Notes: generated from the sequence alone by a model not told the origin. A DNA stretch of 64,000 nt from a virus (IMGVR_UViG_3300028392_002123); one strand, 5' to 3'. Counted from the first letter of the stretch, positions 10,680-38,231 are shown. Numbers and translations are program-made.

Positions 10680-10688
10680 GTATGCTAT

Positions 10689-20717: not shown

Positions 20718-21341
20718 GTGAGCTACTACATGAAATTAAAATTGCCGGCCGATCCATTTAAATTCGGAGCAGCCAGAGAAAGTCTAAGAAAAATCACCGG
20801 CGGATATAATATTGTCAAACCTGAGGAAATACTCAATGACCAAGTCATGGACACTTTTGCCACGTGGTCATTGACTCCAAAATTTGTCAGCTTGTTTGGC
20901 CGCAACGATCAGGACAGTAAAATAGAAGACCGCATGATACACACTGACGTGGCTATGAATCGCGACGGCGCCACGTGGCGTAAGTTAATATTTGGCATTA
21001 ATTGGGAAATAGAACAAAGCGAAAATATATTTTCTTGGTGGGACATGTCTAAATTAAAAGAATGCTGGCCCGACGAACAGCTCGGTGAATTCAGTAAATA
21101 TAAAATACTAAATGGTATACACTATGTAAATCGAGGATTTTTAGGTATACCTGACCTAGCAGTTAAACTAGATGAAACTGTGATCTCTGGACCCACTGCG
21201 GTGCGTACAGAAATTCCACATATGACCTTGTATACCAGTCCCACTTATAAAAGACTGGGAATCAGTGTAAGATTTGACGAATCTAAATTTAATTCCTGGG
21301 CGGACGTTGTTGAATTATTAAAACCCCATGAGCTATCATAA
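20718..21341 (+). CDS. 2OG-Fe(II) oxygenase/cupin-like protein
   Basis: HTD...PHMT...RLGISVRF; tandem paralogue of the next gene. Confidence 0.65.
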   Translation: MSYYMKLKLPADPFKFGAARESLRKITGGYNIVKPEEILNDQVMDTFATWSLTPKFVSLFGRNDQDSKIEDRMIHTDVAMNRDGATWRKLIFGINWEIEQSENIFSWWDMSKLKECWPDEQLGEFSKYKILNGIHYVNRGFLGIPDLAVKLDETVISGPTAVRTEIPHMTLYTSPTYKRLGISVRFDESKFNSWADVVELLKPHELS

Positions 21342-21972
21342 ATCACTGAACTTGCCGGCCAACCCTATAATAGATTGGTCCGCACTAAAATCTAAATTGC
21401 CAAGAAATGTGGTCATGAGCAATAAAAACTTTGCCGGCAGTTTTTCATTGCTGGACATCAATAAACATCTAACCACAGAAGTTTTAGATACACTTGGCCA
21501 TGCAGGAATTACAGTAACACATTTAGTTGTTTTTTCCAATGGCAAATCTAGGACCAATGATGTAGAAAGAATGATACACAGCGATGTTAAATGGGATAGA
21601 GAAGATAATTCTTGGAAAAGTATACATTGCGGAATTAACTGGGAATTAGAAGGCACAAATTTATGGAAATGGTGGGACATGACTGCATACCCTGCTGTCT
21701 ACCCCACAGGCCCAATGACTCCGGAAAATCATATACTGCATGGCATACACTATGAACGTAGAGGAAGGTCCGGAGTACATCCAAATGCTAGATTAATCGA
21801 ACAGGCTTATATACCCGGTCCTAGTTTGGTACGCACAGATGTGCCGCACAGCACTATATTTGGCAAGGAAGGCTATACTCCCAGAGCAGGTATTAGTCTA
21901 CGAATAGATGAAACTAATATTTCATCCTGGGAAGATGCTGTAGAATTGTTTAAACCTTTGATCAAAGAATGA
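21328..21972 (+). CDS. 2OG-Fe(II) oxygenase/cupin-like protein
   Basis: HSD...PHST...RAGISLRI; shares GINWELE and WWDM with 20718. Confidence 0.65.
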   Translation: MSYHKSLNLPANPIIDWSALKSKLPRNVVMSNKNFAGSFSLLDINKHLTTEVLDTLGHAGITVTHLVVFSNGKSRTNDVERMIHSDVKWDREDNSWKSIHCGINWELEGTNLWKWWDMTAYPAVYPTGPMTPENHILHGIHYERRGRSGVHPNARLIEQAYIPGPSLVRTDVPHSTIFGKEGYTPRAGISLRIDETNISSWEDAVELFKPLIKE

Positions 21973-23453
21973 ATGTAATTTTAGTCAATGGCATCTATGA
22001 CTTGATGCCCAGTAGAAGTCTTGGTCCTTACTTGCTAAGACATGTGTTAGCCAAGAATGGCTATACCTGTCAAGTAATCGATCACTGTCAGGAATTCACA
22101 GCCGACGAACTCTACGCTACTATCAAACACTTTATCACCAAGGACACAGTATGCTTGGGATTCAGTACTACATTCTGGCGCGACATAGAACGTAAGATAT
22201 GGAACAACAATGGCGGCATGCCGCCTAACTTAGACACAGCCAGTCGTAGAATTAAACAGGAATATCCCCATATTAAACTAGTGCTAGGTGGTGCAGGCAT
22301 ACGCAATGTGGGTGCCAAGGTGGATCACGTTGACGCACTGGTAGTGGGTGAAGCCGAAGACCTGTTCATTGAACTCTTAGATCACTGGACCAAAGGCACA
22401 GCAGAACCTCCACGTAAAACAAATACAACAGTGAACAAGCCCTACTACAATCAATGTATAAACAAAGATTATGATGTCAGTACCTGCGACTTTATGTGGA
22501 GTTTCAGCGACGCAATTCTGCCCGGAGAACCCCTGCCCTTGGAAACAGCCAGGGGTTGTATTTTTAAGTGCAAGTTTTGTAGTTATCCGCACTTGGGTAA
22601 AAAGAAAATGGACTACTTAAAACCCATAGAACACATACGCGAACACATGATGCACAACTATGAACGTTGGGGTACACGACACTATATCATGCTGGATGAC
22701 ACATTCAATGACAGTGAACACAAGATAGACACACTCTTGGACATGACTCGTCGATTGCCTTTTAAAATAGGCTATGTTGCTTATATTAGAGCTGACTTGG
22801 TGCATAGATTCAAAGGACAGGCGGAAAAGCTACAGGAGTCCGGACTTGAAAGCTGTTTCTTTGGACTTGAAAGTCTACACCCCCAGGCCAGTCAAGCAGT
22901 GGGCAAGGGCTGGAGTGGTCGACATGCCAGAGAATATATACCGCATTTACTGCACGACATATGGCAGGATAAGGTCAATGTGACCACAGGCTTTATTGCA
23001 GGCCTACCCGGAGAAGACGCTGACAGTTTGCTGGACACACTTAAATGGGTCAATGACAATGGCATCATGACATTCTGGTTGGGCTTGGGTATCAGCAGTC
23101 CTGCCAGCTTGGCCGCAGGCAGCATGGATGGTGTGGCCTTTTACAGTGAGTTTGAACGTAACGCTGACAAATACGGCTATAAATTTGACAGCAAAGGTTG
23201 GTGGTACAATGATCTATGGACACATCATACTGCGGAAAAGTTTGCCATGGAACGGCTTAACTATTATAGAAAACTTAAACGTATTAGCTGTTGGTTCCAT
23301 ATTCAGCTACGTGCCTTTGGCTACACAGACGACGAACTATGGGCCATTGCCGGCAGTCAACTCACACACAATGGCTTTTTAACAGATCAGACATTTCTGG
23401 ACCGCAGAGACAAATACGTGGCTGACTATAAGAAATTGTTGTTGACACTATAA
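21969..23453 (+). CDS. B12-binding radical SAM enzyme
   Basis: N-terminal cobalamin-binding-like domain (LVLGG, GEAED); ETARGCIFKCKFC; DDTFN; FGLES. Confidence 0.88.
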   Translation: MNVILVNGIYDLMPSRSLGPYLLRHVLAKNGYTCQVIDHCQEFTADELYATIKHFITKDTVCLGFSTTFWRDIERKIWNNNGGMPPNLDTASRRIKQEYPHIKLVLGGAGIRNVGAKVDHVDALVVGEAEDLFIELLDHWTKGTAEPPRKTNTTVNKPYYNQCINKDYDVSTCDFMWSFSDAILPGEPLPLETARGCIFKCKFCSYPHLGKKKMDYLKPIEHIREHMMHNYERWGTRHYIMLDDTFNDSEHKIDTLLDMTRRLPFKIGYVAYIRADLVHRFKGQAEKLQESGLESCFFGLESLHPQASQAVGKGWSGRHAREYIPHLLHDIWQDKVNVTTGFIAGLPGEDADSLLDTLKWVNDNGIMTFWLGLGISSPASLAAGSMDGVAFYSEFERNADKYGYKFDSKGWWYNDLWTHHTAEKFAMERLNYYRKLKRISCWFHIQLRAFGYTDDELWAIAGSQLTHNGFLTDQTFLDRRDKYVADYKKLLLTL

Positions 23454-24158
23454 CAAGCCCCTGCGCTGATATAAAGTTTCTAGACTACAGTCCAGGGCCA
23501 AGGCCACAACCAGTCTAAATCCCGGGCGATCAATGTCCAAACAATGAGCACAGTCTGTGCGTAAAAATGCGGCACAGTGGTTCTTATATAAACCATGTTT
23601 TGTTGTTGTAGGTTGGCCTAGGTACTGCCATTTTTCTAGATAGTCCCTGCCCTTGATGGCCAAGTATTGATAATTCCGCACACCTAGATTTTCATGATCC
23701 TGTATGCCCACCAAGGGATGACCAGGCACAACATTTTCCCACCAATGCATGGGATCATCAGGATCATATTCAATGACCACATTAAAGCGTGTTAGCACTG
23801 GCAGTCTGCGTAAAGGGTCCACTTCATCCCATTTATATCCATCAATATGCGGATATCCTGGCTGAGCTTTATTGGCATTATTGCTGAGGAACACGTCGGG
23901 CCCACAGAGTTCACTGCCCACATAATTTCTTTCAATGCCCCAGGTCGCCAAATAGTCACGTAGTTCTTCCAGGGCCCGACTGCCCTGCCATATTATTTTC
24001 TTATTAAAGAATTTGTGTTCTGCGTCTACAGTAGCGTATTTGTCATAGGCAATATACTTGTTGACAAAAGGATAATAATAAATTTGTTTAATCCATTCCA
24101 CTGCTTCAGCACTAAATTTAAAATCGCTGTGGTGATAACAATAATTTAATTCGCTCAT
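23448..24158 (-). CDS. 2OG-Fe(II) oxygenase/cupin-like protein
   Basis: HID...AHCL...RLVVALAL; TAAATA-N5-ATG. Confidence 0.62.
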   Translation of the reverse strand: MSELNYCYHHSDFKFSAEAVEWIKQIYYYPFVNKYIAYDKYATVDAEHKFFNKKIIWQGSRALEELRDYLATWGIERNYVGSELCGPDVFLSNNANKAQPGYPHIDGYKWDEVDPLRRLPVLTRFNVVIEYDPDDPMHWWENVVPGHPLVGIQDHENLGVRNYQYLAIKGRDYLEKWQYLGQPTTTKHGLYKNHCAAFLRTDCAHCLDIDRPGFRLVVALALDCSLETLYQRRGLL

Positions 24159-24188
24159 AGTCGTATTTATTATTCATAAATATTCATT

Positions 24189-25637
24189 ATGCACGTCATA
24201 TTTTTAAACAGTATATACACACAAATTCCGCAAAGAAGTCTTGGTCCGTATTTGCTCAAACATCAATTAGCCAAGAATAATTATCAAAGTCAAGTCATTG
24301 ATTTTTGTCAAGACTGGCATGCTGATCAAATTTTACTGCTATTTAAAAAATTTGCCACAGACAAAACTCTGTGTTTGGCACTGAGCAGTACATTTTGGTT
24401 TGACGAAACACAGACTTATTATACCTATGACAACGGAATTCCGCCCAACATTTATCAAGCCGTTAAATTAATTAAACAACAGTTTCCCCAGGTTAAAATC
24501 GTTTTGGGCGGAGCGCACAGTAGTTATATGCGTTATAGAATAGAAGACGTGGACTGTGTGTTCATTGGAGAAAGCGAAGACACACTGGTAGAAGTGTTGG
24601 ACCATTGGTGCCGGGCCGGCCAAGAACCTGTCAGTGAAATTAATCCCGCCACAGGCAAATTAACATACAGAGATCCAAGGAATAAAAAATATCAAATACA
24701 GACCTGTGATTTTATGTGGCAGGAAGAAGACTGTATTATCAACAAAGAAGCTCTGCCCATGGAAACTGCTAGAGGCTGTATATTTAAATGTAGTTTTTGC
24801 GCTTATCCGCACTTGGGTAAAAAGAAATTCGATTATTTAAAACCCAATGATGCCATTAAAAATTATTTAATTAACAATTATAATCGTTGGCAGACCACTA
24901 GTTATATCATCTTAGATGACACTTTCAATGACAGCGAATATAAAATAGATGGATTTTTAGATATTACTAAAAGCCTGCCTTTTAGCATAGAATACGCGGC
25001 CTATATTAGAGCAGACTTGGTCTATAGGTTTGAAGGCATGGCAGACAAGCTGGCAGAAACAGGCCTGCGTGGAGCTTTCTTTGGCATTGAAAGCCTGCAC
25101 CCCCGGGCCAGTCAGATTGTGGGCAAAGGCTGGAGCGGTAGACATGCTCGTGAGTTTGTGCCCAGACTGGTACATGACACGTGGCAGAATAAGATCACTG
25201 CACATTGTGGATTAATTGTGGGACTGCCCGGAGAAACTCGTGAAGATTTAACTACAAGTTTAACCTGGGCCAATGACAACATGATCAATGTTATTTTCTT
25301 TGGCCTGCAGGTCACTAATAACTTACACGAGCGTAGCTATATCAGTGAATTCGAGCGTAACGCTGACAAATATGGATTTAAATTTGACGAGCATGGAAAA
25401 TGGTATAATGACACGTGGACAAGAAATTCTGTTTTAGAATTCAGCGCACAATTAAATCCTCAGCGCAGGCGCATGAATTATTCGGGATTTAATCACGTGG
25501 CCCTGCACACACTGGGCTATACCAATGAAGAAATAATGAACACACACCAGGATCTACTAGTGCGTAACAGTGAGGAATTTCGTCAGCGTAAACAACAATT
25601 CCTCAGGGCCTATTGGAATAAAATTATCAATTTATAA
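24189..25637 (+). CDS. B12-binding radical SAM enzyme (paralogue of 21969)
   Basis: IVLGG, GESED; ETARGCIFKCSFC; DDTFN; FGIES. Confidence 0.88.
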   Translation: MHVIFLNSIYTQIPQRSLGPYLLKHQLAKNNYQSQVIDFCQDWHADQILLLFKKFATDKTLCLALSSTFWFDETQTYYTYDNGIPPNIYQAVKLIKQQFPQVKIVLGGAHSSYMRYRIEDVDCVFIGESEDTLVEVLDHWCRAGQEPVSEINPATGKLTYRDPRNKKYQIQTCDFMWQEEDCIINKEALPMETARGCIFKCSFCAYPHLGKKKFDYLKPNDAIKNYLINNYNRWQTTSYIILDDTFNDSEYKIDGFLDITKSLPFSIEYAAYIRADLVYRFEGMADKLAETGLRGAFFGIESLHPRASQIVGKGWSGRHAREFVPRLVHDTWQNKITAHCGLIVGLPGETREDLTTSLTWANDNMINVIFFGLQVTNNLHERSYISEFERNADKYGFKFDEHGKWYNDTWTRNSVLEFSAQLNPQRRRMNYSGFNHVALHTLGYTNEEIMNTHQDLLVRNSEEFRQRKQQFLRAYWNKIINL

Positions 25638-25646
25638 ATAACAACA

Positions 25647-26207
25647 ATGATGTATAAAAAATTAATTCTGCCCCGGGATTTAATCACGGAAATTCAAATA
25701 ACTGCCATTGAGGAAATGTCTACATTTGATGTTAATTCTGGACAGCTACATTTCTTAATTAAACCACAGCATGTCATGGGCAAATATTTAAAAATGACCT
25801 ATCCCACTCTGCCCTTTTTATATAATTGTTTATTATTTCATCGTCCCCCTAATTTTCAACAGGCTCTGCACATAGACTGTAACAATGAAGATCCGCCGCA
25901 GTTGATCAACTGTGCCATTAATATACCCCTGCAAAACTGTGACGACAGCTACATGGAATGGTACTCGGGTGCGTATACCACAGAAGTCAATGCCACAGTG
26001 GGTCAGGATGGTAGAACTAGAAAATTCGTTGAACTAGCATGGCAGGGAGAACCCCAGTTAATAGAAAAAACAATAATAGATCAGCCCACGCTGGTACGTG
26101 TTAATCAGCCACATAGAATCAGTTGTATTAGTCGTGTGCGTAGTTTAATTACTTTTAGATTCAGCAAGAATCCTGATTTTGACACAGTGGAAGCTATGAT
26201 GCTTTGA
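25647..26207 (+). CDS. 2OG-Fe(II) oxygenase/cupin-like protein
   Basis: HID...PHRI...RSLITFRF; TATAAATA-N6-ATG. Confidence 0.65.
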   Translation: MMYKKLILPRDLITEIQITAIEEMSTFDVNSGQLHFLIKPQHVMGKYLKMTYPTLPFLYNCLLFHRPPNFQQALHIDCNNEDPPQLINCAINIPLQNCDDSYMEWYSGAYTTEVNATVGQDGRTRKFVELAWQGEPQLIEKTIIDQPTLVRVNQPHRISCISRVRSLITFRFSKNPDFDTVEAMML

Positions 26208-26892
26208 CATCAGCAGGTATTTCTGCAATGCCTGTGATGCGTATTTTTTCCAAGTCAAAAAAGCTACGGGGAATTAAATTCATTTCCTGGGCTCCCCATA
26301 ATAAACGTAGATAAACATCATCTCCACCTAGCTCAGACTTTGAATTTTTCAACATGGGCACAATGCTGAGACAGATTCTGGGTCGGTCCGGTGTGCCATT
26401 TTTCATTTGTACGCTGTGGGGAATTCCTGCGTTTACCACGTAGAGTCCGGACATGTCTAAATGATCTATTTCCATGACGTCCTCGGGAGGAAATGCTAGA
26501 TACTTTGTGCCAGCATTGGTCACTAACTGATGTCGATCTTCAACTCGAACCCTGGGCATGTACCAGCGCATGATATTGTCCGACTCACCTATTACATAGT
26601 TAATTTTAGCAATACAGGGTACAACTCTATGCCCGTCTACGTGTATAAAAGCATCAAAGTCTTCGCCTACACCAGGACGAAAAAATACTTCACTGTGCTT
26701 GACTACCATGCCGCCACGTAGCATCATTTCTTTAAATTGCTCACTGATATATTCGGGATCATATTTGTAGTGTGCAAAAAATGTATAAGGTTGACCTTCT
26801 TTATTCTTAGGAAACGGATAAGTTTCTAATATTGTTTCCTTGCTGGCAGGAGCTATATTTAAAATATTAATGTCTCTATATGTAAATGTCAT
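26194..26892 (-). CDS. 2OG-Fe(II) oxygenase/cupin-like protein
   Basis: HVD...PHSV...RICLSIVP. Confidence 0.65.
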   Translation of the reverse strand: MTFTYRDINILNIAPASKETILETYPFPKNKEGQPYTFFAHYKYDPEYISEQFKEMMLRGGMVVKHSEVFFRPGVGEDFDAFIHVDGHRVVPCIAKINYVIGESDNIMRWYMPRVRVEDRHQLVTNAGTKYLAFPPEDVMEIDHLDMSGLYVVNAGIPHSVQMKNGTPDRPRICLSIVPMLKNSKSELGGDDVYLRLLWGAQEMNLIPRSFFDLEKIRITGIAEIPADVKAS

Positions 26893-27437
26893 TTTAAATA
26901 TCCTTTGAACGTGTCTTCAATTTGATTAAATTTTACTTTTAGGTTGTGTTTATTTAACAGCATAAAACTATAGCAAAGTCTAGGCACGTCAACATTTTCC
27001 ACATTGTGTAACTGTCCAGCATTGACTATGGTAGGCTCTAACAGTGAGCTTTCTGCTACCATTTCCACATCTTCCCTGGCAGCCCACATATAGGGAGTGT
27101 TGATCACTGTCATTTTAAACTGTGCAGAACAGCCGGGTCGAAGCTGCCACCAACGCATAACGCTGGCACCTGGATTAACTATAAAGTTAATTTTAATATG
27201 ATTGTCAATTTGGCGGCCGTCTAAGTGCAGAGCCCAGGGATAGTCGATGTCTGTGGGTTTTTTTAAAAATACTTCGCTGAAGCCAATTTTTAATTCTAAA
27301 CTGGCCAGCCAATCAATAAAATTAACGTCAATTAATTCTCTGTCTAATTTAATTTGTCCGTGTGCAGTGGGAAATTTAACTTCGGGCAGGGACATTTTAA
27401 ATGGCAGCGTTAATTCTCTATAATATATATTTTCCAT
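26889..27437 (-). CDS. 2OG-Fe(II) oxygenase/cupin-like protein
   Basis: HLD...LHNV...RLCYSFML; start trimmed to MENIY. Confidence 0.65.
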   Translation of the reverse strand: MENIYYRELTLPFKMSLPEVKFPTAHGQIKLDRELIDVNFIDWLASLELKIGFSEVFLKKPTDIDYPWALHLDGRQIDNHIKINFIVNPGASVMRWWQLRPGCSAQFKMTVINTPYMWAAREDVEMVAESSLLEPTIVNAGQLHNVENVDVPRLCYSFMLLNKHNLKVKFNQIEDTFKGYLK

Positions 27438-27439
27438 GA

Positions 27440-28219
27440 TTAATTCTTGGCTATCCAAAAGCTTAGATGACAGCGTGTCTGTTCTTCTCTGGGCTGATAC
27501 CAACCCACGCCCACTGACGCCACTGAGTGCATGTAGTCCTTGGTGAATATTTCATAGACCTGACCATCCGCGGGAATATAGTGTCCGACAAAGTCCATGG
27601 GCTGTTGTGCTTCTTCTTGATCAAAGCCTGCTTTCCATTTAAAATTTCTAGCACTGAATAATAGTACGTGCCCGGGGTTGGTCCACAGGGGAATATGAAA
27701 TCTATTTTCCACGGGATCGTCTTTGTGCCAGTAAAGTCCCTGACTGGTACCATTGACTGTTCTATTCTGACAGCGTATGCGTATGGGTGCTTGAAATTTA
27801 TCCTGCATGTAATTGTGCAGTTCTTCCACTATGGTGCCTTTAAATCTAGGCACCAGCTCGGCTAATTGATCATCGGTCATAGCAGGTTCTTCAACGCCCA
27901 CACCGTCAACAACACGACCCCTGCGTCCGGTGCCGCCAAACAACTGTTGATCCAATTCAGTGAATCTAGACAGGTTAGTGGTTAAATTAATATCACCATT
28001 GGTAATTCTGCTGGGATTGACAGCGTTGTAATCATGATGCAGGCTGGCATCACACCAATCCTCTGTGCCCAACTTTTTAAGTTCAACTGTTCTACGCCAG
28101 TGATCAAATCTAATGCCCGCTAGGAATACTCTGTCGCGAACAACTTCGGTTATTTTATTCACGTCCCATTGACTGAGATCTTGTCGTACTTCATAATATT
28201 TTTTAAACAGTGACGTCAT
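27440..28219 (-). CDS. 2OG-Fe(II) oxygenase (Asp/Asn hydroxylase-like)
   Basis: WHKD, RFHIPLWTN, MHSV, RCHL; TATAAATA-N5-ATG. Confidence 0.68.
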   Translation of the reverse strand: MTSLFKKYYEVRQDLSQWDVNKITEVVRDRVFLAGIRFDHWRRTVELKKLGTEDWCDASLHHDYNAVNPSRITNGDINLTTNLSRFTELDQQLFGGTGRRGRVVDGVGVEEPAMTDDQLAELVPRFKGTIVEELHNYMQDKFQAPIRIRCQNRTVNGTSQGLYWHKDDPVENRFHIPLWTNPGHVLLFSARNFKWKAGFDQEEAQQPMDFVGHYIPADGQVYEIFTKDYMHSVASVGVGWYQPREEQTRCHLSFWIAKN

Positions 28220-28266
28220 GAAATTATTTATAGCAAAAATCGTTTATTTTCACTATAAATATTCAC

Positions 28267-29289
28267 ATGCCCACTAGTCCTTATTTACTGCGCTATAGAG
28301 ATCCCGAGGTTAAAGAACCCGAAAATATAGAAACCAACGAATTTATTCAAAGACAGCTGGGCCGTCGCAGTCTGCGTAATTATGATCCACAGCGTAAAAT
28401 ATCCTGGGAACAGCTCAGTTATTTGATCACTGCCGCGCAATGCAGTCCCAATGGCAGTGGCGCACAAAGTTGGAGTGTGATTGCACTGATCACTGACGAA
28501 GAAAAAAGAATATTCCGGGAAGCCGCAGGCTCTGTTCTAGACGGCACAGATCCTTTGAATAGATTAAACTATGATAACTGTAGTGTATTTTTAATTTGGA
28601 TCGCAGACAACTACAAAAATGAACAGGGTATACGCATTGTAGGCAACAAAGAACTTTCTCCAGAAGAATTAAAACTCATGCCCAAGCATATATCTGCTAC
28701 TATATCTGTGCATCCTGTGCCGGGTAGAGATGACATATTATTTGATGTTGAACAGCATGTGCAAAACTTAGATCAAAGTTATTATTCTATTAGAGCCATG
28801 CAGGACTGTATTATTGCCGCACAGACCTTTGTTATGTGTGCTGAAAGTCTGGGCATGGGCACACTATACATGGGCAGTATAGCACATTGTGAACTAGCCA
28901 GTTTTAAAAATACATTAAATTTACCCAATAAAACTTATCCCCTTTTTGGCATGTGCGTGGGCTATGAACTAGCACCAGGCAGTGATCACAACGGCATACA
29001 TATTAATAATGGGCAAAGCGACTTGTACAGAAAGATCAGATATTCCGATGCAGATTATGCAGACTGGCTGATCAAACCTGTGCAACCACAGGATATTGTT
29101 CTGCATCGTGCCAAATATAATAAAGATGTCAAGGCCAGTTTATTCAAATATAATAAAATCATTTATGAATATGTCAGCAGATTAAAATCTCGCCGGGCAA
29201 ATTATTTGGTTAGTAGAGTAGCACAGCGCATTTATAAAGTAGTTGATCAATTGGGCCTAATGATGGCCATGGGTAATCGATGGCGTTGA
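28267..29289 (+). CDS. Nitroreductase family flavoprotein (NfsA-like)
   Basis: RRSLRNY, AQCSPNGSGAQSWS, AESLGMGTLYMG, PLFGMCVGY. Confidence 0.85.
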   Translation: MPTSPYLLRYRDPEVKEPENIETNEFIQRQLGRRSLRNYDPQRKISWEQLSYLITAAQCSPNGSGAQSWSVIALITDEEKRIFREAAGSVLDGTDPLNRLNYDNCSVFLIWIADNYKNEQGIRIVGNKELSPEELKLMPKHISATISVHPVPGRDDILFDVEQHVQNLDQSYYSIRAMQDCIIAAQTFVMCAESLGMGTLYMGSIAHCELASFKNTLNLPNKTYPLFGMCVGYELAPGSDHNGIHINNGQSDLYRKIRYSDADYADWLIKPVQPQDIVLHRAKYNKDVKASLFKYNKIIYEYVSRLKSRRANYLVSRVAQRIYKVVDQLGLMMAMGNRWR

Positions 29290-29320
29290 TCACTAAATAT
29301 TTTAAACAAGTGGAGATACT

Positions 29321-29947: not shown

Positions 29948-30168
29948 AATTTGAAGAAAGAATTCCAAGAAGCCTAAGTAAAGTAATTACTTGGAGAATT
30001 ATACTATCTATACAGTATTTCGTTATTGGCTATGTAACCATGGGAACCATAGCCAGTGCCCTGGGATTAGTGGGCATTACCACTGTGGTCAACAGTTGTA
30101 TATATTATCTACACGAACGTGCTTGGAATAAATCCAGCTGGGGCAAAAAGGTAGAAGTAGAAGCATGA
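29944..30168 (+). CDS. DUF2061-like small membrane protein
   Basis: RSLSKVITWR...YYLHERAW. Confidence 0.7.
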   Translation: MKFEERIPRSLSKVITWRIILSIQYFVIGYVTMGTIASALGLVGITTVVNSCIYYLHERAWNKSSWGKKVEVEA

Positions 30169-30749
30169 ACTTTGACTTGCCCTACAAGCATATAGGTCCG
30201 GTGCCCCGAGAATTATTGGAGCAGGCCGAGTCAGGAGTCATTGACTTAGAAGCGTCAGGCGCTTATAATTTTAAACACGGCGAATGGCTACGCTTGGACA
30301 GTTATTATAATCCGGATAATCATCAATTATCTGACATCGTGGGCTCGGGCCTAGTAGATCATGTCATGAGTTTCTTTCCCGGTGAAAAGTTGTTTGGGTG
30401 GAGTGTCAGTCATATACCGCCACATCAGCCCGTGATTGATCATGCTGATCGTATGTTTTTTCATAGATTTGCCAAACGTATTATTGTGCCCATCAATGAC
30501 GTGGGCAATAATGTATTAAATTGGCACTGGTCTTGGAATGATACAAGACGTTGTTATTTCTTTGAATACGGAAATATATATAGATTAAACACAGCATGGA
30601 CACATGGTGTTAAAAATTCTTCTAACAAGGTTAGAAGAGCAGTTTATTTTGATGTTATGGAAACTAAATTTTACGATAAATTCATCACACATCCTGACAT
30701 ACTAACAGTTATATTGGCCAATGCTGCCGGAGAGAGATATGTACTTTAA
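30165..30749 (+). CDS. Asp/Asn beta-hydroxylase-like 2OG-Fe(II) oxygenase
   Basis: HAD...YRLNTAWTHGV...RRAVYFD; WLRLD shared with 29321. Confidence 0.7.
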   Translation: MNFDLPYKHIGPVPRELLEQAESGVIDLEASGAYNFKHGEWLRLDSYYNPDNHQLSDIVGSGLVDHVMSFFPGEKLFGWSVSHIPPHQPVIDHADRMFFHRFAKRIIVPINDVGNNVLNWHWSWNDTRRCYFFEYGNIYRLNTAWTHGVKNSSNKVRRAVYFDVMETKFYDKFITHPDILTVILANAAGERYVL

Positions 30750-31338
30750 AAATATTGCAGAAAACGTGGGCATACTGCCCGATTACATGATAAAAGATAT
30801 CATGGCCTATGAAAGTGATATAGAACCAGTTAAAGATTATCGTGCTGTATTAGGTAAAGAAAATTTAATTCAGAATTTTGTTAAAATGTCGCCAGACCTA
30901 CAACGACAAGTAACACAGGTCAGTAGCTATATTTTATCTTTACAACTGCCTATTCTTAAGGAAATGGTCATATATGAAAGTTTATTAGTTAATATTCCCA
31001 CAGTGACCAGTACGATTGTCATGCCCACACGTTATCTATGCAGGGTGGGTGAATTAATTATTGCTCCTTTAAAAGGTGGTTGCGTCATTGAAAGCGAAGA
31101 ATTTCCCAGTAGTGTAGCATTTAAACCAGGCTACTTGTATAGGATTAACAATAGAGTCAACAGTACCTTTATGGCCACACCAGACTTTCTCTGTGTAGCA
31201 TTTAATCTCTTGGACTTTGATCTTAGACGCTACTTGATGCCCCATGATCTAAGAAGCGCATTTATTCGTCGCAAGGACGAACATTTAAATCCCGACGAAG
31301 CTCCAGACAATCCCGGAGTGCCCAAAGATGCGTACTGA
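30739..31338 (+). CDS. Cupin-like paralogue lacking metal ligands
   Basis: GYLYRINNRV matches its neighbours but there is no HxD or distal His. Confidence 0.45.
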   Translation: MYFKNIAENVGILPDYMIKDIMAYESDIEPVKDYRAVLGKENLIQNFVKMSPDLQRQVTQVSSYILSLQLPILKEMVIYESLLVNIPTVTSTIVMPTRYLCRVGELIIAPLKGGCVIESEEFPSSVAFKPGYLYRINNRVNSTFMATPDFLCVAFNLLDFDLRRYLMPHDLRSAFIRRKDEHLNPDEAPDNPGVPKDAY

Positions 31339-32230
31339 ACCTTTGATAGCCAAAAGCGGCCGCGAGTTATCCTGGGGCATACGTATGTATGTTGACAGCT
31401 ACGAAGAACTGGTCAGCATGGGCCGAGAAGAACTGACACGCTTGGTCTATGCTAATAAATTCTTTGCTGTGCGCGGCATGTCAGGCATGACCAAACAACA
31501 GTTCTGGGACTTGTGCAATATGTTCGGCGGAGGCTGTTGGACCAAAGAAGATTACCTTGTGGGCAAAGAACAAAACTTTCCCATAGATGATGATGGCAGT
31601 ACTGATAGAGTATTTGCGTTTTACACTAATCACGGTAATACTGCCAAGGCCATAGGTGATGCTGAAATGAGTTGGCACGTGGATATCCCACTGTGGCCCA
31701 CACACAAAGCTCCTTTACGTGCTTTTTATGCTACTAGTATACCTGACAATCGTTATGGTATCACACGCTTCGCGGATCGTGCCTATGGTTGGCTAACAAT
31801 GACTCCCGAAGAACAAGAAGAAGCTCTTAAGTGGGATTTACTATATCAAAGCTGGTACGAGCCTGGCACTAACCTAACTTGGTTGCCTGTGGTAGATACT
31901 AGTCCTGTGGACGGCAAACCCTATTTACAGTTTACCAGTTTCAGTAACAGCGGCAAAAAATACAGCCACTATGCACATGGCTGGAAAGTACATGGTTGGG
32001 TATTTGGAGCACGTCGCGAGGGTGTGCCCATGAACGCAGACTATGTTAGTTTTCTGCATGAAAAGACCATTGTGGATGATAACATATTTGAAAATGTCTG
32101 GGACGAAGAAGATTTTGTTATCTATACCAATGTACATATGATACATGATAGAACTCCGCTTAAAAGTGAAATACAGACCAAGCCCAGAGAGTTTTATCGT
32201 TTGAACGTTTTTAACAGCTGGCAAAAGTGA
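31328..32230 (+). CDS. TauD/TfdA family 2OG-dependent dioxygenase
   Basis: WHVD, G.TRFAD, W..EDFVIYTN..MIHDR. Confidence 0.82.
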   Translation: MRTEPLIAKSGRELSWGIRMYVDSYEELVSMGREELTRLVYANKFFAVRGMSGMTKQQFWDLCNMFGGGCWTKEDYLVGKEQNFPIDDDGSTDRVFAFYTNHGNTAKAIGDAEMSWHVDIPLWPTHKAPLRAFYATSIPDNRYGITRFADRAYGWLTMTPEEQEEALKWDLLYQSWYEPGTNLTWLPVVDTSPVDGKPYLQFTSFSNSGKKYSHYAHGWKVHGWVFGARREGVPMNADYVSFLHEKTIVDDNIFENVWDEEDFVIYTNVHMIHDRTPLKSEIQTKPREFYRLNVFNSWQK

Positions 32231-32814
32231 AGGTCATTGATTTAATTAAAACACCCATGGAGGGCCTGTGGGCAGACTGTCTGACAGTGATTGCTGACAG
32301 TGAGGATCCCTTAAAAGAAAATTATACCACAATAAACTTTGAAGAGTTTATCAGTTTTCCCTGTGTCGTTGACAGTGATAGAATAGTCTGTTTCAGCGGC
32401 CTGCAATACAACGAACGTAAGTGGGGTCGGGGCATTGCCAGAGCCAGTAGTAGGATGTGGATAGATCCTGCATATAGACATCAAGGTATTACCAAATTCA
32501 CTGGTGGTAGTAAATTTCTCAATACCACTTACTGCCTGCCCTTACAGTTTGCAGAACTTGCGGCCAACAATATTAACAGCGTTTTTATCAGCAGGGAAAG
32601 CAATGTTCGTGCTTTTAAAGAATATTTAAAATTGATTAAGATTAACTGTGGCATGGAATTCGAATTGGAACCGAATTTGTACAATGTCTGTGGGCCACAG
32701 TCTGTGATACCTGTGAGTTGCCAACAATTCGTTGCTGTACACCATAGAAATAAGTCCGCGTCGACTTGGACTGCAAATATGATTAAGTATAAACTTAATG
32801 AATTTATTATTTAA
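32227..32814 (+). CDS. Hypothetical protein, GNAT-like
   Basis: VCFSGL, RASSRMWIDPAYRHQG resembles GNAT motif A. Confidence 0.4.
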   Translation: MKVIDLIKTPMEGLWADCLTVIADSEDPLKENYTTINFEEFISFPCVVDSDRIVCFSGLQYNERKWGRGIARASSRMWIDPAYRHQGITKFTGGSKFLNTTYCLPLQFAELAANNINSVFISRESNVRAFKEYLKLIKINCGMEFELEPNLYNVCGPQSVIPVSCQQFVAVHHRNKSASTWTANMIKYKLNEFII

Positions 32815-32822
32815 ATAACTGT

Positions 32823-33731
32823 ATGAACATGGGAAATATTAAAGGCTACTACGAAGATGATCCTTCAAGGGTATTTAGAACCGGTATGATGGATCTACTT
32901 ACTTTTGAAGTACAAGGATGCACGAGGCCGGCACAGACACTCAAAGAAGAATTGATGCTAGCGGCCAGTGATATATACAATACTGTACCTGATATACACA
33001 TAGCACTATCCGGTGGTTGGGAAAGTAACGTATGTCTGCATACTTTTATGGAAGCAGGATATAAACCCCGGGTAATGATTCTGGAGTTTCCCCGGGGACT
33101 CAATGACTTTGACACAGATCCTGCCAAAGAAGCTTGCCGTAGATATGGCATTACTCCTACCATCGTACCTGTTGACATGTCCTTTCTAGACTTTATCAAA
33201 AACGCTGTAGTACCTGTGGTAGAAAAATATCAAACATATACTTTTTTTCAAAGTTTGTTTGCTTATTACTTGGAAAAAACAAAAATCAACTGCTTGCTAG
33301 TAGATAAAGTAGATCTGCGCCGCGATCTAAATCCTAATGGTCAGTGGAGTTTTATACGCAGTGAAGTAGCTACATGGACTGATCGATTCAACACACTCAA
33401 CGAAAATAAAGTATTGATGAATTTTTATTGTCACAGTCCCGAAGCCATGCTGGCCTATTTAGAACTGCCCACTATAGTCGACTTGATGAATCATCCTAAA
33501 AATGGTAAGCTAAGTCTACAAAGTCTCAAACATAAGATCTATCTAGAAGGCGGATACAATATTCCATTGTTTACACGAACTGTCAGCACTGATAAGATCA
33601 TTGGCGTAACAGCGGCCTGCGAAGAAAAGATTAAAAAAGACATTGGTTGGAAAACTAGGATAGGCTACGTAGAGTATCCTAAAATTGTTCAAGCATTAAA
33701 AAGTGAAGGTGGAAAATGGCAATACATTTAA
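32823..33731 (+). CDS. PP-loop (adenine nucleotide alpha-hydrolase) superfamily protein
   Basis: IALSGGWES variant loop; TAAATA-N5-ATG. Confidence 0.6.
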   Translation: MNMGNIKGYYEDDPSRVFRTGMMDLLTFEVQGCTRPAQTLKEELMLAASDIYNTVPDIHIALSGGWESNVCLHTFMEAGYKPRVMILEFPRGLNDFDTDPAKEACRRYGITPTIVPVDMSFLDFIKNAVVPVVEKYQTYTFFQSLFAYYLEKTKINCLLVDKVDLRRDLNPNGQWSFIRSEVATWTDRFNTLNENKVLMNFYCHSPEAMLAYLELPTIVDLMNHPKNGKLSLQSLKHKIYLEGGYNIPLFTRTVSTDKIIGVTAACEEKIKKDIGWKTRIGYVEYPKIVQALKSEGGKWQYI

Positions 33732-34327
33732 GAAGATTGGTAACAGAAGACTTGGCCGTTATAGAATCTATGGCCAAAGAAAAATTAGTAATGACCAATA
33801 CTAAAAGTTTTGTATTTGAAGAAAACGGTGTTGCTGTGTTCAAATACTTTGTCTTACCAGATTCAATCTATGGCGCAGAAAAAATGCGCTGTTATGGTTA
33901 CTTTGAAGATGATAAATTATTGGCTGTATTGGGTTTGAGAACATTTGATCAATTCCCCAGTTGGATCCTTAGCTTTATTGTCACTAGTAACGACTGTAAA
34001 AATAGCATTGACTGTATTAAATCACTGCTAGAGTACACCATAGAAGAACAGGAAAAACTGGGATTCTATCAATGGTTTACAGTGAGTAAATTGGAAAAGT
34101 TTGAGGTTTGGCAAAAACTATTTAAAAAGGCCAGACAGAAATACCATCACTATGTCTATGCAAGAATCCCAGCTAATACCATGCCTAAATGGTTGAGTCA
34201 CTTGAGCTTTAGCCGCGGAAAATTGTTTCCTTACGATATAAATATCAGCATGTACATGGCTAAGAGTTTGTGTACTTCGGACGGCGACGACTCGGATGTC
34301 GACGAACGTGACATAGACTTTTTATGA
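33716..34327 (+). CDS. Hypothetical protein, GNAT-like
   Basis: YGYFEDDKLLAVLG, WILSFIV. Confidence 0.4.
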   Translation: MAIHLRRLVTEDLAVIESMAKEKLVMTNTKSFVFEENGVAVFKYFVLPDSIYGAEKMRCYGYFEDDKLLAVLGLRTFDQFPSWILSFIVTSNDCKNSIDCIKSLLEYTIEEQEKLGFYQWFTVSKLEKFEVWQKLFKKARQKYHHYVYARIPANTMPKWLSHLSFSRGKLFPYDINISMYMAKSLCTSDGDDSDVDERDIDFL

Positions 34328-35184
34328 ACGAACAAGAACCAATTAAACTAAACAATTTTTTATATTTTGTGCTGTATCCAGCACACTTAGCTGCCTTATT
34401 AGGTATTTTTGTATTTCCATTCTACTTTGATTTTGGTATTAAACATGTTGTATGTTTACTGCTAGGATGGGTACTATTAGCAGGCATAGGTAGTGCTATT
34501 ACCTTACACAGAGTTGTCAGTCACAGAGCATTAGAACCGCGCCGTGGTTTTAAACCTGTTATGCTGTGGCTGGCCAGTTTGTGTTTACAGGGAAGTCCTT
34601 TGGGTTGGGCCAGTATACATAGAGGCGCACATCATAGACATGCTGACACAGACAGAGATCCGCATACTCCGCAAAAAGGTTTTTGGTACAGCTATCATGG
34701 TTGGCTCTATGACTGGGCAAATTATTATAATTTTAGATTCAGTGTGGACTTGATCAGAGATCCCATGCACATGTGGTTCGCACAGCACTACACTAAGATC
34801 ATTGCTGTAACTTATATAATCGTGGGATTAATCGACTGGCAAGTTCTTTTATTCATGTTTATTATTCCTGCTGTTTACAGCCTGCATCAAGAAAGCTGTG
34901 TAAACTATTTCTGTCACTTGCCTAATAAAGGTTATAGGAACTTTGAAACCAAAGATGACAGCAACAATAGATCAGTTATGGCCTTGTTAGTTTGGGGTCA
35001 AGCTTGGCACAACAATCATCATGCCAAGGCCAGTGCCTACGACTTTGGCACCACTGTTAGTGGTCGTATTGACGAATTTGATCCCACATTATTGTTAGTA
35101 CCTTTACTAGCAACCAAAGAAAGTAGACAACGTATATTTAAAGCGAGAGAAGATGCAACTACAATTCCGAACACTAATAATTAA
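34324..35184 (+). CDS. Membrane fatty acid desaturase
   Basis: LHRVVSH, HRGAHH, RDPHTP, WHNNHH. Confidence 0.9.
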   Translation: MNEQEPIKLNNFLYFVLYPAHLAALLGIFVFPFYFDFGIKHVVCLLLGWVLLAGIGSAITLHRVVSHRALEPRRGFKPVMLWLASLCLQGSPLGWASIHRGAHHRHADTDRDPHTPQKGFWYSYHGWLYDWANYYNFRFSVDLIRDPMHMWFAQHYTKIIAVTYIIVGLIDWQVLLFMFIIPAVYSLHQESCVNYFCHLPNKGYRNFETKDDSNNRSVMALLVWGQAWHNNHHAKASAYDFGTTVSGRIDEFDPTLLLVPLLATKESRQRIFKAREDATTIPNTNN

Positions 35185-35701
35185 TCCTGATAATTGGATT
35201 ATTGGTGAGCATACTAACAAAGATGCTATGATATGGGCGATATCAGATCGTCCTTGGTATAATCTTAGAACTTATACTATTAAAGATGAATTTTCTTTGC
35301 CCGCACAGTTAAAAACCAATAGCTGGACGCAGGTAGAAATTAATAGGGAAAACACTTGCCCACAGGATGTGCTGAGAGAAATTAAATTAATCGAAGCTAG
35401 AATTAAATTCTGTGCGGAGTTATACTATCGCTTACAAATAGCACAGGAAAATCTAGGACTCAGCATGACTAATTTTACCTTGGTGCAATTACATGAATAT
35501 CTCGTCAGCAAAGGACTAGTTGAAGGAGAAGCCAATCCAGATGCCAGCATACAGTACGAAAACAAACTGAGATTATTACAAGATTTAAACAACATCAAAA
35601 ATCAAGTTGTTGCTTCTTTAATGTCTGCGGCAACCATTGAAGATTTTGCTCAAACAAGAGCACTCATGGAACGCCTATTCTTCACTAACATATTACTATG
35701 A
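35153..35701 (+). CDS. Hypothetical helical partner of PP-loop enzyme
   Basis: Coupled to the next gene; C-terminal SAATIEDF resembles 54095. Confidence 0.6.
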   Translation: MQLQFRTLIINPDNWIIGEHTNKDAMIWAISDRPWYNLRTYTIKDEFSLPAQLKTNSWTQVEINRENTCPQDVLREIKLIEARIKFCAELYYRLQIAQENLGLSMTNFTLVQLHEYLVSKGLVEGEANPDASIQYENKLRLLQDLNNIKNQVVASLMSAATIEDFAQTRALMERLFFTNILL

Positions 35702-36735
35702 ATTTAATTTACTATCATCCGATTGCATTACCCGTAGAACAAAAAGGCATATTTCATGCCTGTGTTAATCCACTAATTTCTGTCATGGATAGAACTGATA
35801 ATCGTTGGCCCGCAAAGCTAGACTATGTCAATTTATTCCCCATGCCCGCGGTATCGGCGGATCCAACACCTAACTTCATGGACACCAGCATAGCCAGGAT
35901 AAAAGAATTAACCGAGCATGATCAACATGTTAATCTACTGTGGAGCGGTGGCATTGACAGCACGTTTATCATGACCATGATGATTGACTTGGGCATTGCT
36001 GATCAACTGTTCAATGAAGGTAGATTGACCATTGGTTTAAATCAGGACAGTATCAAAGAGAATCCAGTGTTCTATGAAAAGTTTATCAAAGCACGTTATA
36101 TGAAATGTGTGGTGCAGGCCAATCATATTTTAATTAATCCCAAACCCGATCAAGTTATTATCACAGGCGAAATGGCCGACAACTTGGTAGGTAGTTTAAC
36201 TATGAAAAGTTGTGTAGATTTTTACAACGACTTCAGTGTTGTTCATAAACCATATGCCCAGGCCATTGATTGGATGACACGCAATTTAAAAAAGCCTGAA
36301 TACAAGGATAATCTGCAAAAGTTTTTAGAAAGTGCTATTGCTAAAAGTCCAGTTGAATTGACCACATGCCATGATCTACTTTGGTATTTGAACTTCAATT
36401 ATAAATGGCAAGCAGTTAACTTTAGAATTGTCAGCCATTGTCGGGATCAAAACACTGGAAATTTATTGATTAAAAACTTAAAACATTTCTTTAACACTGA
36501 CAGTTTTCAACAATGGAGTCTCAAAGAAGGACACTATTTTGAAGGCAGTAATTGGGGAGATTATAAAAAGGTCATGAAGAAACAAATCTATCAAGTTACC
36601 AGCGACTTAGAATATTTTAAGAACAAGACCAAACATCCTAGTTTGCCTGCATTGCTACGCTATAAAGATACCTTTGACTTTATCTACGAAGACAATGGCA
36701 GTTACGTGTTTACTAAAAAACAGATTCAATCATGA
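35698..36735 (+). CDS. Asparagine synthase-like PP-loop enzyme
   Basis: LLWSGGIDST, ITGEMADNL, WYLNFNYKWQ, FQQWS, YKKVMK. Confidence 0.7.
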   Translation: MNLIYYHPIALPVEQKGIFHACVNPLISVMDRTDNRWPAKLDYVNLFPMPAVSADPTPNFMDTSIARIKELTEHDQHVNLLWSGGIDSTFIMTMMIDLGIADQLFNEGRLTIGLNQDSIKENPVFYEKFIKARYMKCVVQANHILINPKPDQVIITGEMADNLVGSLTMKSCVDFYNDFSVVHKPYAQAIDWMTRNLKKPEYKDNLQKFLESAIAKSPVELTTCHDLLWYLNFNYKWQAVNFRIVSHCRDQNTGNLLIKNLKHFFNTDSFQQWSLKEGHYFEGSNWGDYKKVMKKQIYQVTSDLEYFKNKTKHPSLPALLRYKDTFDFIYEDNGSYVFTKKQIQS

Positions 36736-37643
36736 ACTTTGGCATAGAAGAAACCACAGGCAAGTTCTACGTAGAACATGTTAGCTGTAGTCGTCAACCT
36801 GGCACACTTCGCGAAGAAAGCGATCGTCGTGCCAGAGAGATTTATTCTAACAATAATAAAGTAATGCTGTGCCTCAGCAGTGGCCTAGACAGTCAAATAG
36901 CATTACACAGTTTTCTCAGTCAGGGCATACCTGTTGAATGTGCCTTTTTACGCTTGGGAGGATTCAACGACAATGAATATGAAAACTTACAAGTATTGGA
37001 AAAGAAATACGGATTTAAAAGTCATGTCATTGAACTAGATCCCAATGCTCGCAGAGAAGAATTAGAAGCACTGAGTCCAGTACTGGACGCACATTTAAAT
37101 CACTGCATACAACATCTATTCGTCAAAGAGCTACCCCGAGACTATGACATTGTACAAGTACTGCATGATCCATGGTTGGTAACTAGAAAAGATACTGCAC
37201 AACACTATGTTTATCAAAGTTATTATGATCCAGAGATAGCTCGCTATCGTGCATTGTCTGCCATACCCGATCGCACAGGTCGTATAGAAATGTTTGGCAA
37301 CAGCAGTGAATATTTTGTCAGCAGTATCAATGACGAATTATTTCACTACTTTCTTAAGAGTTGGGTTTACTATGATGGCAATGGTTTCAAGCTCTACGAC
37401 CTCAAAGTCAATGACGTTCTGCGCTATGAATACTATATCAAACCCATGCTGTATGCCAAGCACTGGGGCGATGAACTAATTTACTTTCCCAAGTTCTCGG
37501 GCTATGAAAACATTGATTGGCTCTACAAAAGTGTACGTAAAATACAAAAAGAAAAACAATGCTTTATGCTCTGGCAGGATTTGATCAAACACTATCTTGC
37601 TTGTACGGGTACTAGTAAAAGATTCTACGAAGTTAAATTTTAG
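36732..37643 (+). CDS. PP-loop superfamily protein (paralogue of 46835)
   Basis: LCLSSGLDSQ, YYIKPM, YFPK. Confidence 0.62.
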   Translation: MNFGIEETTGKFYVEHVSCSRQPGTLREESDRRAREIYSNNNKVMLCLSSGLDSQIALHSFLSQGIPVECAFLRLGGFNDNEYENLQVLEKKYGFKSHVIELDPNARREELEALSPVLDAHLNHCIQHLFVKELPRDYDIVQVLHDPWLVTRKDTAQHYVYQSYYDPEIARYRALSAIPDRTGRIEMFGNSSEYFVSSINDELFHYFLKSWVYYDGNGFKLYDLKVNDVLRYEYYIKPMLYAKHWGDELIYFPKFSGYENIDWLYKSVRKIQKEKQCFMLWQDLIKHYLACTGTSKRFYEVKF

Positions 37644-37647: not shown

Positions 37648-37673
37648 AAAAAAAGGACCTTTCGGTCCTTTTT
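37648..37673. terminator. Bidirectional intrinsic terminator
   Basis: A7-GGACC-TTTC-GGTCC-T5. Confidence 0.8.
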
Positions 37674-38154: not shown

Positions 38155-38231
38155 TGGCGCGGTGGACGGGACTCGAACCCGCGACCCTCGGCGTGACAGG
38201 CCGATACTCTAACCAACTGAGCTACCACCGC
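38155..38231 (-). tRNA. tRNA-Asp (GTC)
   Basis: Cloverleaf; TCGGC-CT GTC AC-GCCGA; CCA. Confidence 0.94.

Follow-up and report, generated by a model that had tools for sequence, protein, structure and literature searches.

We analysed a 64-kb stretch of viral DNA (64,000 nucleotides of IMGVR_UViG_3300028392_002123, hereafter the window) and found that positions 20718-37643 encode a coherent and conserved phage enzyme system. The source is a ~340-kb freshwater T4-like jumbo phage, in which this island forms a conserved accessory operon set inside a tRNA gene array. A four-gene core, consisting of a first PP-loop enzyme (PP-loop B), a GNAT acyltransferase, an SCD-type membrane acyl desaturase, and an asparagine-synthetase-like PP-loop enzyme (PP-loop A), is surrounded by a shell of AspH/LpxO-type, TauD-type, and virus-specific double-stranded beta-helix (DSBH) Fe/2-oxoglutarate (2OG) hydroxylases together with one or two probable B12-binding radical S-adenosylmethionine (rSAM) enzymes. 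We tentatively propose, as a possible role, that the island tailors an acyl or acyl-amide lipid bound in the membrane of the infected cell.

Layout and conservation of the island

The island contains 22 open reading frames (ORFs), named here by their first coordinate, all of which lie where an earlier prediction made from the sequence alone (the original prediction) had placed them; one correction concerns the strand, since 18 are on the plus strand and four (23448, 26194, 26889, and 27440) are on the minus strand. Pfam matches, motifs, profiles, AlphaFold models, and paralogy together bear out the predicted enzyme inventory: two rSAM enzymes that probably bind B12, nine small HxD...H oxygenases and a ligand-less paralogue, a TauD-family oxygenase, a nitroreductase, a DUF2061 protein, the desaturase, three PP-loop enzymes, one confirmed and one probable GNAT, and one protein of 182 amino acids (aa). 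Start/stop overlaps in the ORF coordinates connect most of the plus-strand genes, consistent with the translational coupling that had been proposed. All 29 tRNA genes of the window, which has a G+C content of ~39%, are encoded on the minus strand; the island is flanked by tRNA-Gly (19477-19552) and tRNA-Asp (38155-38231) and is mostly antisense to the tRNA array. Neither Pfam nor PHROGs has a family for most of its oxygenases, PP-loop enzymes, and GNATs. Searches of PHROGs gave zero matches for the ten small island proteins tried (nine oxygenase-like proteins and the GNAT-like 32227), and the core proteins were also unmatched, with the sole exception of a QueC-like match for 36732.

We recovered the island in near-identical order, again within a tRNA array, in three related contigs at 36-85% protein identity (G001, 235 kb with an estimated completeness of 66%; L008, 360 kb; and L012, 315 kb). 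The nitroreductase and DUF2061 genes are absent from all three, and 23448 is absent from L008 and L012; in L008 the TauD gene lies upstream of the rSAM gene, of which there is just one copy. The original prediction had named independent shuffling of the genes among relatives as the outcome that would speak against a functional block, and at this level of divergence both order and content are instead kept. Among 50,697 deposited phage genomes we found no DNA-level match to the island (megablast); protein-level searches of the same genomes (tblastn) gave no match for rSAM enzyme 1, a single marginal one for PP-loop A, and three weak matches for the desaturase.

The core also recurs well beyond these relatives. 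A PP-loop A profile matched at least 478 IMG/VR contigs, and in 35 of the 80 loci that we sampled the four core genes lie within about 5 kb of each other. These 35 loci represent 30 groups at 95% and nine groups at 60% PP-loop A identity, and they fall into four arrangements. The first is collinear with the window (L014 and L018), and the second is collinear without the gene for the 182-aa protein (L015-L017 and L022). In the third, a 25647-like oxygenase gene followed by PP-loop A faces a desaturase-GNAT-PP-loop B set, with thyX and an HNH gene in between at the one such locus annotated with Pfam (L032). The fourth, seen in L044, is a collinear run of thyX, 32227-like, SDR-like, 27440-like, AspH-like, and TauD genes followed by PP-loop B, GNAT, desaturase, B12-rSAM, a 206-aa protein, and PP-loop A; L043 preserves the order and most of the genes, and so does L042 except for the 32227-like gene. 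CheckV completeness of the carrier contigs implies genomes of ~330-430 kb, and one carrier has a clear Gp23 gene. The recurrence of the core across these loci indicates that it is a unit, to which rSAM, TauD, AspH-like, and 32227-like genes have been repeatedly recruited.

This pattern bears on an explanation in which only the small core is a unit and the remaining genes are independent auxiliary metabolic genes that accreted in a hypervariable region, as happens in T4-like cyanophages and pelagimyophages, each acting on its own host substrate. Such accretion would fit the scattering of the same families among tRNA genes, a superoxide dismutase, and a second nitroreductase over at least 54 kb of the window, as well as the patchy occurrence of the nitroreductase, DUF2061, and 23448 genes, the movement of TauD, the variation between one and two rSAM copies, and the solitary rSAM homologue (42% identical) that we found in L010, a 165-kb T4-like contig. 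For pelagimyophages, too, Zaragoza-Solas et al. list AspH, stearoyl-CoA desaturase, speH, and rSAM cassettes each as an auxiliary element of its own (PMC7029224). However, the gene order is kept, with start/stop overlaps, even though the proteins have diverged across the whole range given above, the AspH-like trio retains its order in four genomes even though one of its members is an inactive paralogue, and in the very distant phage loci L042-L044 the core is collinear with the rSAM, TauD, and AspH-like genes. We therefore judge independent accretion to be unlikely.

Enzymes of the core cassette

The integral-membrane desaturase (34324-35184, plus strand) is of the SCD type and delta-9-like: it matches PF00487 (8e-18, 65.5 bits) and SCD1 (4ymk, 6e-13), and its sequence contains three His boxes and hydrophobic helices.

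PP-loop A (35698-36735, plus strand) is a predicted adenylating amide ligase that resembles a stand-alone C-terminal domain of asparagine synthetase. Its SGGIDS motif is invariant, its GEMADN motif is invariant or nearly so, and its AlphaFold model, with a predicted local distance difference test (pLDDT) score of 94, reaches a template modelling (TM) score of 0.87 to a stand-alone "asparagine synthetase domain" cluster, the top solved matches being TsnB9, ASNS, carbapenam synthetase, and beta-lactam synthetase. PP-loop A thus shares SGGxDS, GExxD, and the synthetase-domain fold with the AsnB class (AsnB, beta-lactam synthetase, carbapenam synthetase, and TsnB9), but it differs in its low identity to these enzymes (10-14%) and in its architecture. 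The protein has 345 aa, and its model aligns solely to the C-terminal domains of AsnB-class structures; by this length and alignment, the N-terminal nucleophile (Ntn) glutaminase domain is not present, which suggests that the amine donor is free ammonia or another amine. In five distant viral contigs (L065, L066, L070, L072, and L087), three or four PP-loop A-like paralogues are clustered on one strand with no desaturase gene.

PP-loop B (32823-33731, plus strand) is a NadE/QueC/GMP-synthase-like ATP pyrophosphatase by its SGGxxS motif and profile. In this phage the core additionally holds its paralogue PP-loop B2 (36732-37643, plus strand), which has the QueC-like match noted above (PHROG 1550, 3.7e-7) and is 72-74% identical to its counterparts in G001 and L008. 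The profile of the 32823/36732 family matches NadE (3fiu) at 2.4e-6, and together with the motifs and the PP-loop A model this substantiates the three PP-loop enzymes that had been predicted. The other addition to the core in this phage is the conserved 182-aa protein (35153-35701, plus strand), which has no Pfam or PHROG match, is 57-58% identical in the three relatives, and has weak relatives in L014, L018, L025, and L027.

The two GNAT-like proteins that had been predicted differ in how well they held up. For the core acyltransferase (33716-34327, plus strand) the AlphaFold model (pLDDT 86) is a GNAT: Foldseek matched it to SpeG, MnaT, RimI, and phosphinothricin acetyltransferase at 1e-8 to 1e-7, with TM scores to GNAT structures of up to 0.64 (query) and 0.79 (target). 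Its Acetyltransf_4 score of 21.9 bits compares with a cut-off of 24.3, its family consensus contains the segment HExxGxN, a variant of Q/RxxGxG/A, and a PDB sequence search with the GNAT profile returned nothing. The second protein (32227-32814, plus strand) is a probable GNAT, based on a weak Pfam match (Acetyltransf_7, E 0.1) and on language-model matches, in that all of its named Atlas feature matches are GNAT clusters; genes like it accompany the core in L014, L043, and L044. Because the catalytic motifs are all intact, the enzymes are probably active.

Oxygenases and radical SAM enzymes of the shell

The HxD...H triad is invariant across orthologues of eight of the small oxygenases (20718, 23448, 25647, 26194, 26889, 27440, 29321, and 30165), as well as of TauD and 19463; it is present in 21328 and absent from 30721. 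Profile-profile comparison with hhalign separated a group A (20718, 21328, 25647, 26194, and 26889) from a group B (29321, 30165, and the ligand-less 30721), with 30721 joining the 29321 family at a probability of 81%. Group A begins with the tandem paralogues 20718-21341 and 21328-21972 (plus strand), which are 34% identical to each other and have the triad H75/D77/H168. Another member, 25647-26207 (plus strand), is an Fe/2OG oxygenase whose Atlas model has the DSBH fold, with TM scores of 0.6-0.73 to 2OG-FeII_Oxy_3 and PF05118 clusters (25647 being the only oxygenase for which the fold was tested), and its family adjoins PP-loop A in 26 distant phage loci. Three HxD...H oxygenase-like genes with invariant triads follow on the minus strand (26194-26892, 26889-27503, and 27440-28219); 26194 and 26889 are paralogues, 26194 and 27440 have orthologues in G001 and L012, and 26889 has one in all three relatives. 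The accessory oxygenase-like gene 23448-24158 (minus strand) has no Pfam or PHROG match and shares H104/D106/H205 with its G001 orthologue.

The AspH-like trio (29321-29947, 30165-30749, and the ligand-less 30721-31338, plus strand) was assigned by PF05118 and paralogy, and its order is identical in all four genomes. The first member scores 25.8 against the PF05118 (Asp_Arg_Hydrox) cut-off of 22.6, and 30165 is placed in this family through paralogy only. When the AspH-like profile was compared with PDB sequences, proline 3-hydroxylase at E 0.037 was the only match. An accessory DUF2061 membrane protein (29944-30168, plus strand; PF09834) is encoded between 29321 and 30165, and the TauD-family Fe/2OG oxygenase gene (31328-32230, plus strand; PF02668, 1.7e-8) follows the trio. 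A further AspH-like Fe/2OG oxygenase lies just outside the island (19661-20272, plus strand; PF05118, 4e-12, 46.7 against the cut-off of 22.6), with a conserved HxD...H triad and an orthologue in G001; its start is uncertain because a long ORF from 19463 overlaps tRNA-Gly.

The two predicted B12-binding rSAM enzymes (21969-23453 and 24189-25637, both plus strand) are 48% identical paralogues that both carry CxxxCxxC and score 49.9 and 48.4 bits against the PF04055 cut-off of 29.5 (Radical_SAM E-value of 5.5e-13 for enzyme 1). For the B12-binding domain (PF02310, cut-off 32.1) their scores of 31.1 (7.6e-4 for enzyme 1) and 19.8 bits fall just under and well under the threshold, and many rSAM homologues have precomputed PF02310 matches. 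The best NCBIfam match of both is TIGR04072, a lipid-biosynthesis B12-rSAM family, with a top score of 81.5 bits against a cut-off of 360; neither gene reaches the curated NCBIfam cut-offs for TIGR04072, PhpK, or the C-methylase subfamilies of ribosomally synthesised and post-translationally modified peptides (RiPPs). Enzyme 1 has 610 metagenomic homologues, and a PDB sequence search with the rSAM gene gave nothing.

The nitroreductase-family flavoenzyme (28267-29289, plus strand; PF00881, 1.1e-20; NfsA-like, 5.5e-20) is an accessory gene of the island. In a 69-kb contig with the curli genes CsgF and CsgG (L013:4083-11324), two rSAM homologues flank a nitroreductase and a 26889-like oxygenase, an arrangement indicating that rSAM and nitroreductase genes are linked in another lineage too.

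A candidate role in membrane-lipid tailoring

The most conserved member of the core is the integral-membrane acyl desaturase, which suggests a lipophilic substrate. Bacterial members of PF05118 such as LpxO and OlsC hydroxylate lipid acyl chains. We favour a lipid target because of the desaturase partner (one of four desaturases in the window), the TIGR04072 top match of the rSAM enzymes, the precedent of LpxO and OlsC, and the existence of viral desaturases. Activity on C16 chains has been demonstrated for viral delta-9 desaturases (PMC5776448).

Under the mechanism that we propose, the operons would be transcribed from T4-late-type promoters and the enzymes would work together on an acyl substrate associated with the membrane of the infected cell. 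In this scheme the desaturase would introduce a double bond into the acyl chain, the GNAT would N-acylate an amine, and the PP-loop enzymes would adenylate carboxylates to form amides, while unactivated carbons would be hydroxylated by the oxygenases and C-methylated by the rSAM enzymes. The outcome would be a modified membrane lipid of an acyl-amide or aminolipid-like kind, synthesised as the phage is remodelling the envelope of its host. A broader version of this proposal, which we hold with somewhat less confidence, is that a widespread and undescribed jumbo-phage pathway makes or rebuilds acyl-amide (aminolipid-like) membrane lipids with its stand-alone asparagine-synthetase-like and NadE-like ligases, GNAT, and desaturase, the shell hydroxylases and C-methylases, in sets that differ between lineages, diversifying the product.

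The closest parallel among lipid pathways is the Ols/Lpx tailoring of aminolipids and lipid A (OlsB, OlsC/LpxO, and OlsD/OlsE), which likewise combines an acyltransferase-fold enzyme, PF05118 hydroxylases, and membrane di-iron enzymes that act on acyl chains. Neither PP-loop amide ligases nor B12-rSAM enzymes, however, are known from the Ols or Lpx pathways. Several further observations weigh against a lipid product. The island has no acyl carrier protein, acyl-CoA ligase, OlsA/PlsC-type acyltransferase, or OlsB homologue, and its GNAT is nearest to small-amine acetyltransferases (SpeG and MnaT) rather than to OlsB-type N-acyltransferases. Every NCBIfam match is far under its cut-off. One operon combines B12-rSAM enzymes, which require low oxygen, with a desaturase and 2OG enzymes that depend on O2. 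Lastly, the lone rSAM homologue in the 165-kb T4-like phage and the variable accessory genes suggest that some shell enzymes may act independently.

If the lipid reading is true, the island would be a virus-encoded lipid-tailoring toolkit of a size otherwise known only from bacterial natural-product clusters. At least 5% of the genome goes into this enzyme set in giant T4-like phages from lakes and, judging from the contigs sampled, from other habitats, and the identity of its product would reveal what such phages alter in their hosts. Knowing the product would also give a function to a PP-loop/cupin pair that is widespread in bacteria and to several large protein families confined to viruses, possibly with new amide-forming, C-H hydroxylating, and C-methylating chemistry.

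Small-molecule and macromolecule products

The same combination of superfamilies could instead make a diffusible small molecule (an amide, or a beta-lactam-like or polyamine-derived compound), in which the asparagine-synthetase-like ligase would serve as the bond-forming scaffold enzyme and the other enzymes would perform tailoring like that of thienamycin or clavams. The B12-rSAM, 2OG oxygenase, GNAT, and AsnB-like enzymes parallel ThnK/L/P, ThnG/Q, ThnF, and ThnM, and more generally the island has the superfamily mix of thienamycin- and proteusin-type sets (B12-rSAM C-methylases, 2OG oxygenases, and GNAT). Carbapenam synthetase, beta-lactam synthetase, and the hydroxyamidotransferase TsnB9 are among the structural neighbours of PP-loop A, and the GNAT resembles SpeG and amino-acid N-acyltransferases. 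A polyamine link is also conceivable from the S-adenosylmethionine decarboxylase gene speD conserved at the island edge (20269-20631, minus strand; PF02675, 7e-16), which is divergent from the operon start and is 82-85% identical, with unchanged position, in the three relatives. However, the TM scores of PP-loop A to the beta-lactam enzymes (0.3-0.4) are at the generic level of the AsnB fold, no crotonase-type or other scaffold enzyme appears among the Pfam matches, no transporter gene was recognised in the island, and the best-conserved partner is a membrane acyl desaturase. The island further differs from thienamycin and proteusin sets in that no crotonase/CarB, precursor peptide, or epimerase was recognised in it, its core includes the membrane desaturase, and the thresholds of the subfamily models are not reached. 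Consistent with the original prediction, none of the Pfam families for polyketide synthases, non-ribosomal peptide synthetases, terpene synthases, or glycosyltransferases is present among the 22 island products. We consider a small-molecule product rather improbable.

The original prediction had proposed the decoration of a pre-existing macromolecule (virion or tail-fibre proteins, tRNAs, or DNA) or else a small molecule; for virion or tail-fibre proteins, the decoration would be RiPP-like C-methylation and hydroxylation. The view of a coherent, conserved phage system stands, while a macromolecular target was left unsupported, as no tail-fibre gene was seen among the annotated neighbours and the membrane desaturase points to a lipophilic substrate. 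B12-rSAM C-methylases and Asp/Asn hydroxylases do recall proteusin tailoring, the island lies within a tRNA array in all four related genomes, and PP-loop B weakly resembles tRNA- and nucleotide-modifying PP-loop enzymes. In pelagimyophages, rSAM cassettes occur in the host-recognition cluster (PMC7029224). Set against this, distant phages carry the core beside thyX with no tRNA within 21 kb, and an integral-membrane desaturase has no obvious role on protein, tRNA, or DNA. There is also no conserved ORF of precursor size: none was found in the island or by comparison with the three relatives, the gaps inside the island measure only 30-86 nt and leave no room for a precursor gene, in line with the original prediction, which had noted no obvious precursor peptide, and we rejected a RiPP precursor on these grounds, the lone extra small ORF (37688-37885) lying past the terminator without an orthologue in the relatives. 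As to linkage to tail-fibre genes, which the original prediction had suggested checking, no tail-fibre or structural gene was seen beside the island in the window or the three relatives, where not every neighbouring gene is annotated.

The sole hint of a virion target comes from bacterial genomes. PP-loop A homologues of ~30% identity occur in many bacterial phyla, and in 49 of 80 bacterial loci (L094-L173) such a gene lies near a same-strand HxH-type cupin gene, often with a 4-nt overlap (for example L148:7935-9703 and L094:6888-8906); in Flavobacteriia a 127-aa protein is inserted between the two. Database records for these PP-loop and cupin proteins are all "hypothetical" or generic. Relatives of the desaturase or the rSAM enzymes were found only at Bdellovibrio-type loci and in one Burkholderiales metagenome-assembled genome, and a PP-loop B relative is present at few loci (candidate-phyla and Bdellovibrionales genomes). 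In prophages of Xanthomonas, Comamonas, Undibacterium, and Ralstonia, the pair, with PP-loop A homologues of ~28% identity, follows Baseplate_J and a tail-fibre gene. Five loci (L149:5059-12011, L117, L121, L123, and L126) have the order Baseplate_J, tail-fibre N-terminal-domain gene, 199-aa protein, PP-loop, 177-aa protein, and cupin, with two additional minus-strand genes between the PP-loop gene and the 177-aa/cupin genes in L149. We rejected the bacterial cupin as kin of the phage HxD families (hhalign probability <1%), and the 127-, 177-, and 199-aa neighbours proved unrelated to the 182-aa 35153 and to the four other families compared. Taken together, we regard decoration of a macromolecule as the least probable of these explanations and retain lipid tailoring as our preferred reading.

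Promoter boxes and predicted timing of expression

TAAATA boxes ahead of island genes, as originally proposed, are seen 11-27 nt upstream of eight of the 22 gene starts. The core cassette is preceded by a T4-late-type TAAATA box (32812-32817, plus strand), recognised by sequence and conservation, which is retained at -8 to -14 in four genomes despite diverged flanks. Similar boxes were identified by sequence at 20692, 24177, 25635, 28256, and 29294 on the plus strand and at 24164-24169 and 28225-28232 on the minus strand. Exact TATAAATA sites number 13 in the window, 10 of which are just upstream of a gene or tRNA. The relative G001 has a gene for a late sigma factor resembling T4 gp55, and a Gp23 capsid gene is present in a close relative. 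The conservation of TAAATA together with the gp55-like sigma factor makes a T4-late reading reasonable, and from these two features we infer that the island is probably expressed late in infection. At the other end of the island, where a terminator had been placed at 37648, we identified a strong one at 37650-37673, which consists of an A-tract, a 10-bp hairpin, and a U-tract and is readable on both strands (-13.2 kcal/mol, z = -4.4).

Some TATAAATA boxes lie only 3-6 nt ahead of an ATG (25633-25640, 28254-28261, 13116-13123, and 18043-18054, and on the minus strand 28225-28232 and 39700-39707). This distance leaves no space for a Shine-Dalgarno sequence, so that if these boxes are T4-type late promoters, the mRNAs would be leaderless or nearly so. 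On the minus strand, TATAAATA also directly precedes tRNA-Met (10604-10679; box at 10686-10693), tRNA-Gly (box at 19597-19604), and tRNA-Leu (49396-49479; box at 49501-49508), suggesting that parts of the tRNA array may share a late-type promoter.

Comparison with auxiliary regions of other T4-like phages

Among known systems, the island is best filed with the auxiliary-gene islands of T4-like phages. Like the auxiliary regions of T4-like cyanophages and pelagimyophages, it belongs to a T4-like lineage (by the Gp23 and gp55-like proteins of relatives), includes an SCD-type desaturase, PF05118 oxygenases, and an adjoining speD, and lies in a plastic genome region (PMC5776448, PMC7029224). Unlike in those regions, the desaturase here shares a conserved cassette with a GNAT and two or three PP-loop ligases, to which about 11 oxygenases and the B12-rSAM enzymes are added in coupled operons. 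Roitman et al. describe viral desaturases and not the genes adjoining them (PMC5776448), and a full-text search found no publication joining phage, fatty acid desaturase, asparagine synthase, acetyltransferase, and dioxygenase.

Related enzyme families elsewhere in the window

We searched the window with hidden Markov models (HMMs) of the island families and found that the island coordinates delimit the operon set and not the whole enzyme repertoire; thus the single contiguous block of the original prediction is real as an operon set, but the same families continue outside it. Three further FA_desaturase paralogues are encoded on the minus strand (1-606, 578-1342, and 14510-15313), and further oxygenases were detected at 8292, 18480, 19463, 39044, and 42160. 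PP-loop enzymes are represented by a 36732-like gene (46835-47773, plus strand; E 1.6e-78), a PP-loop A-like gene (52974-54098, minus strand; E 1e-21), and a weaker match (45628-46788, minus strand). The second nitroreductase (44031-44675) and the superoxide dismutase, of the Fe/Mn type (17477-18037), are both on the minus strand. Other minus-strand genes among the tRNAs encode a TctC-type tricarboxylate-binding protein (44687-45604), an NMO/IMPDH-like oxidoreductase (47756-48715), and a metallophosphoesterase (40784-41386). Within the tRNA array itself, tRNA-Ile(tat) (41917-42008, minus strand) has a length of 92 nt according to ARAGORN, which is atypically long for tRNA-Ile, and one of the three tRNA-Met(cat) genes in the window could be a lysidine-type tRNA-Ile.

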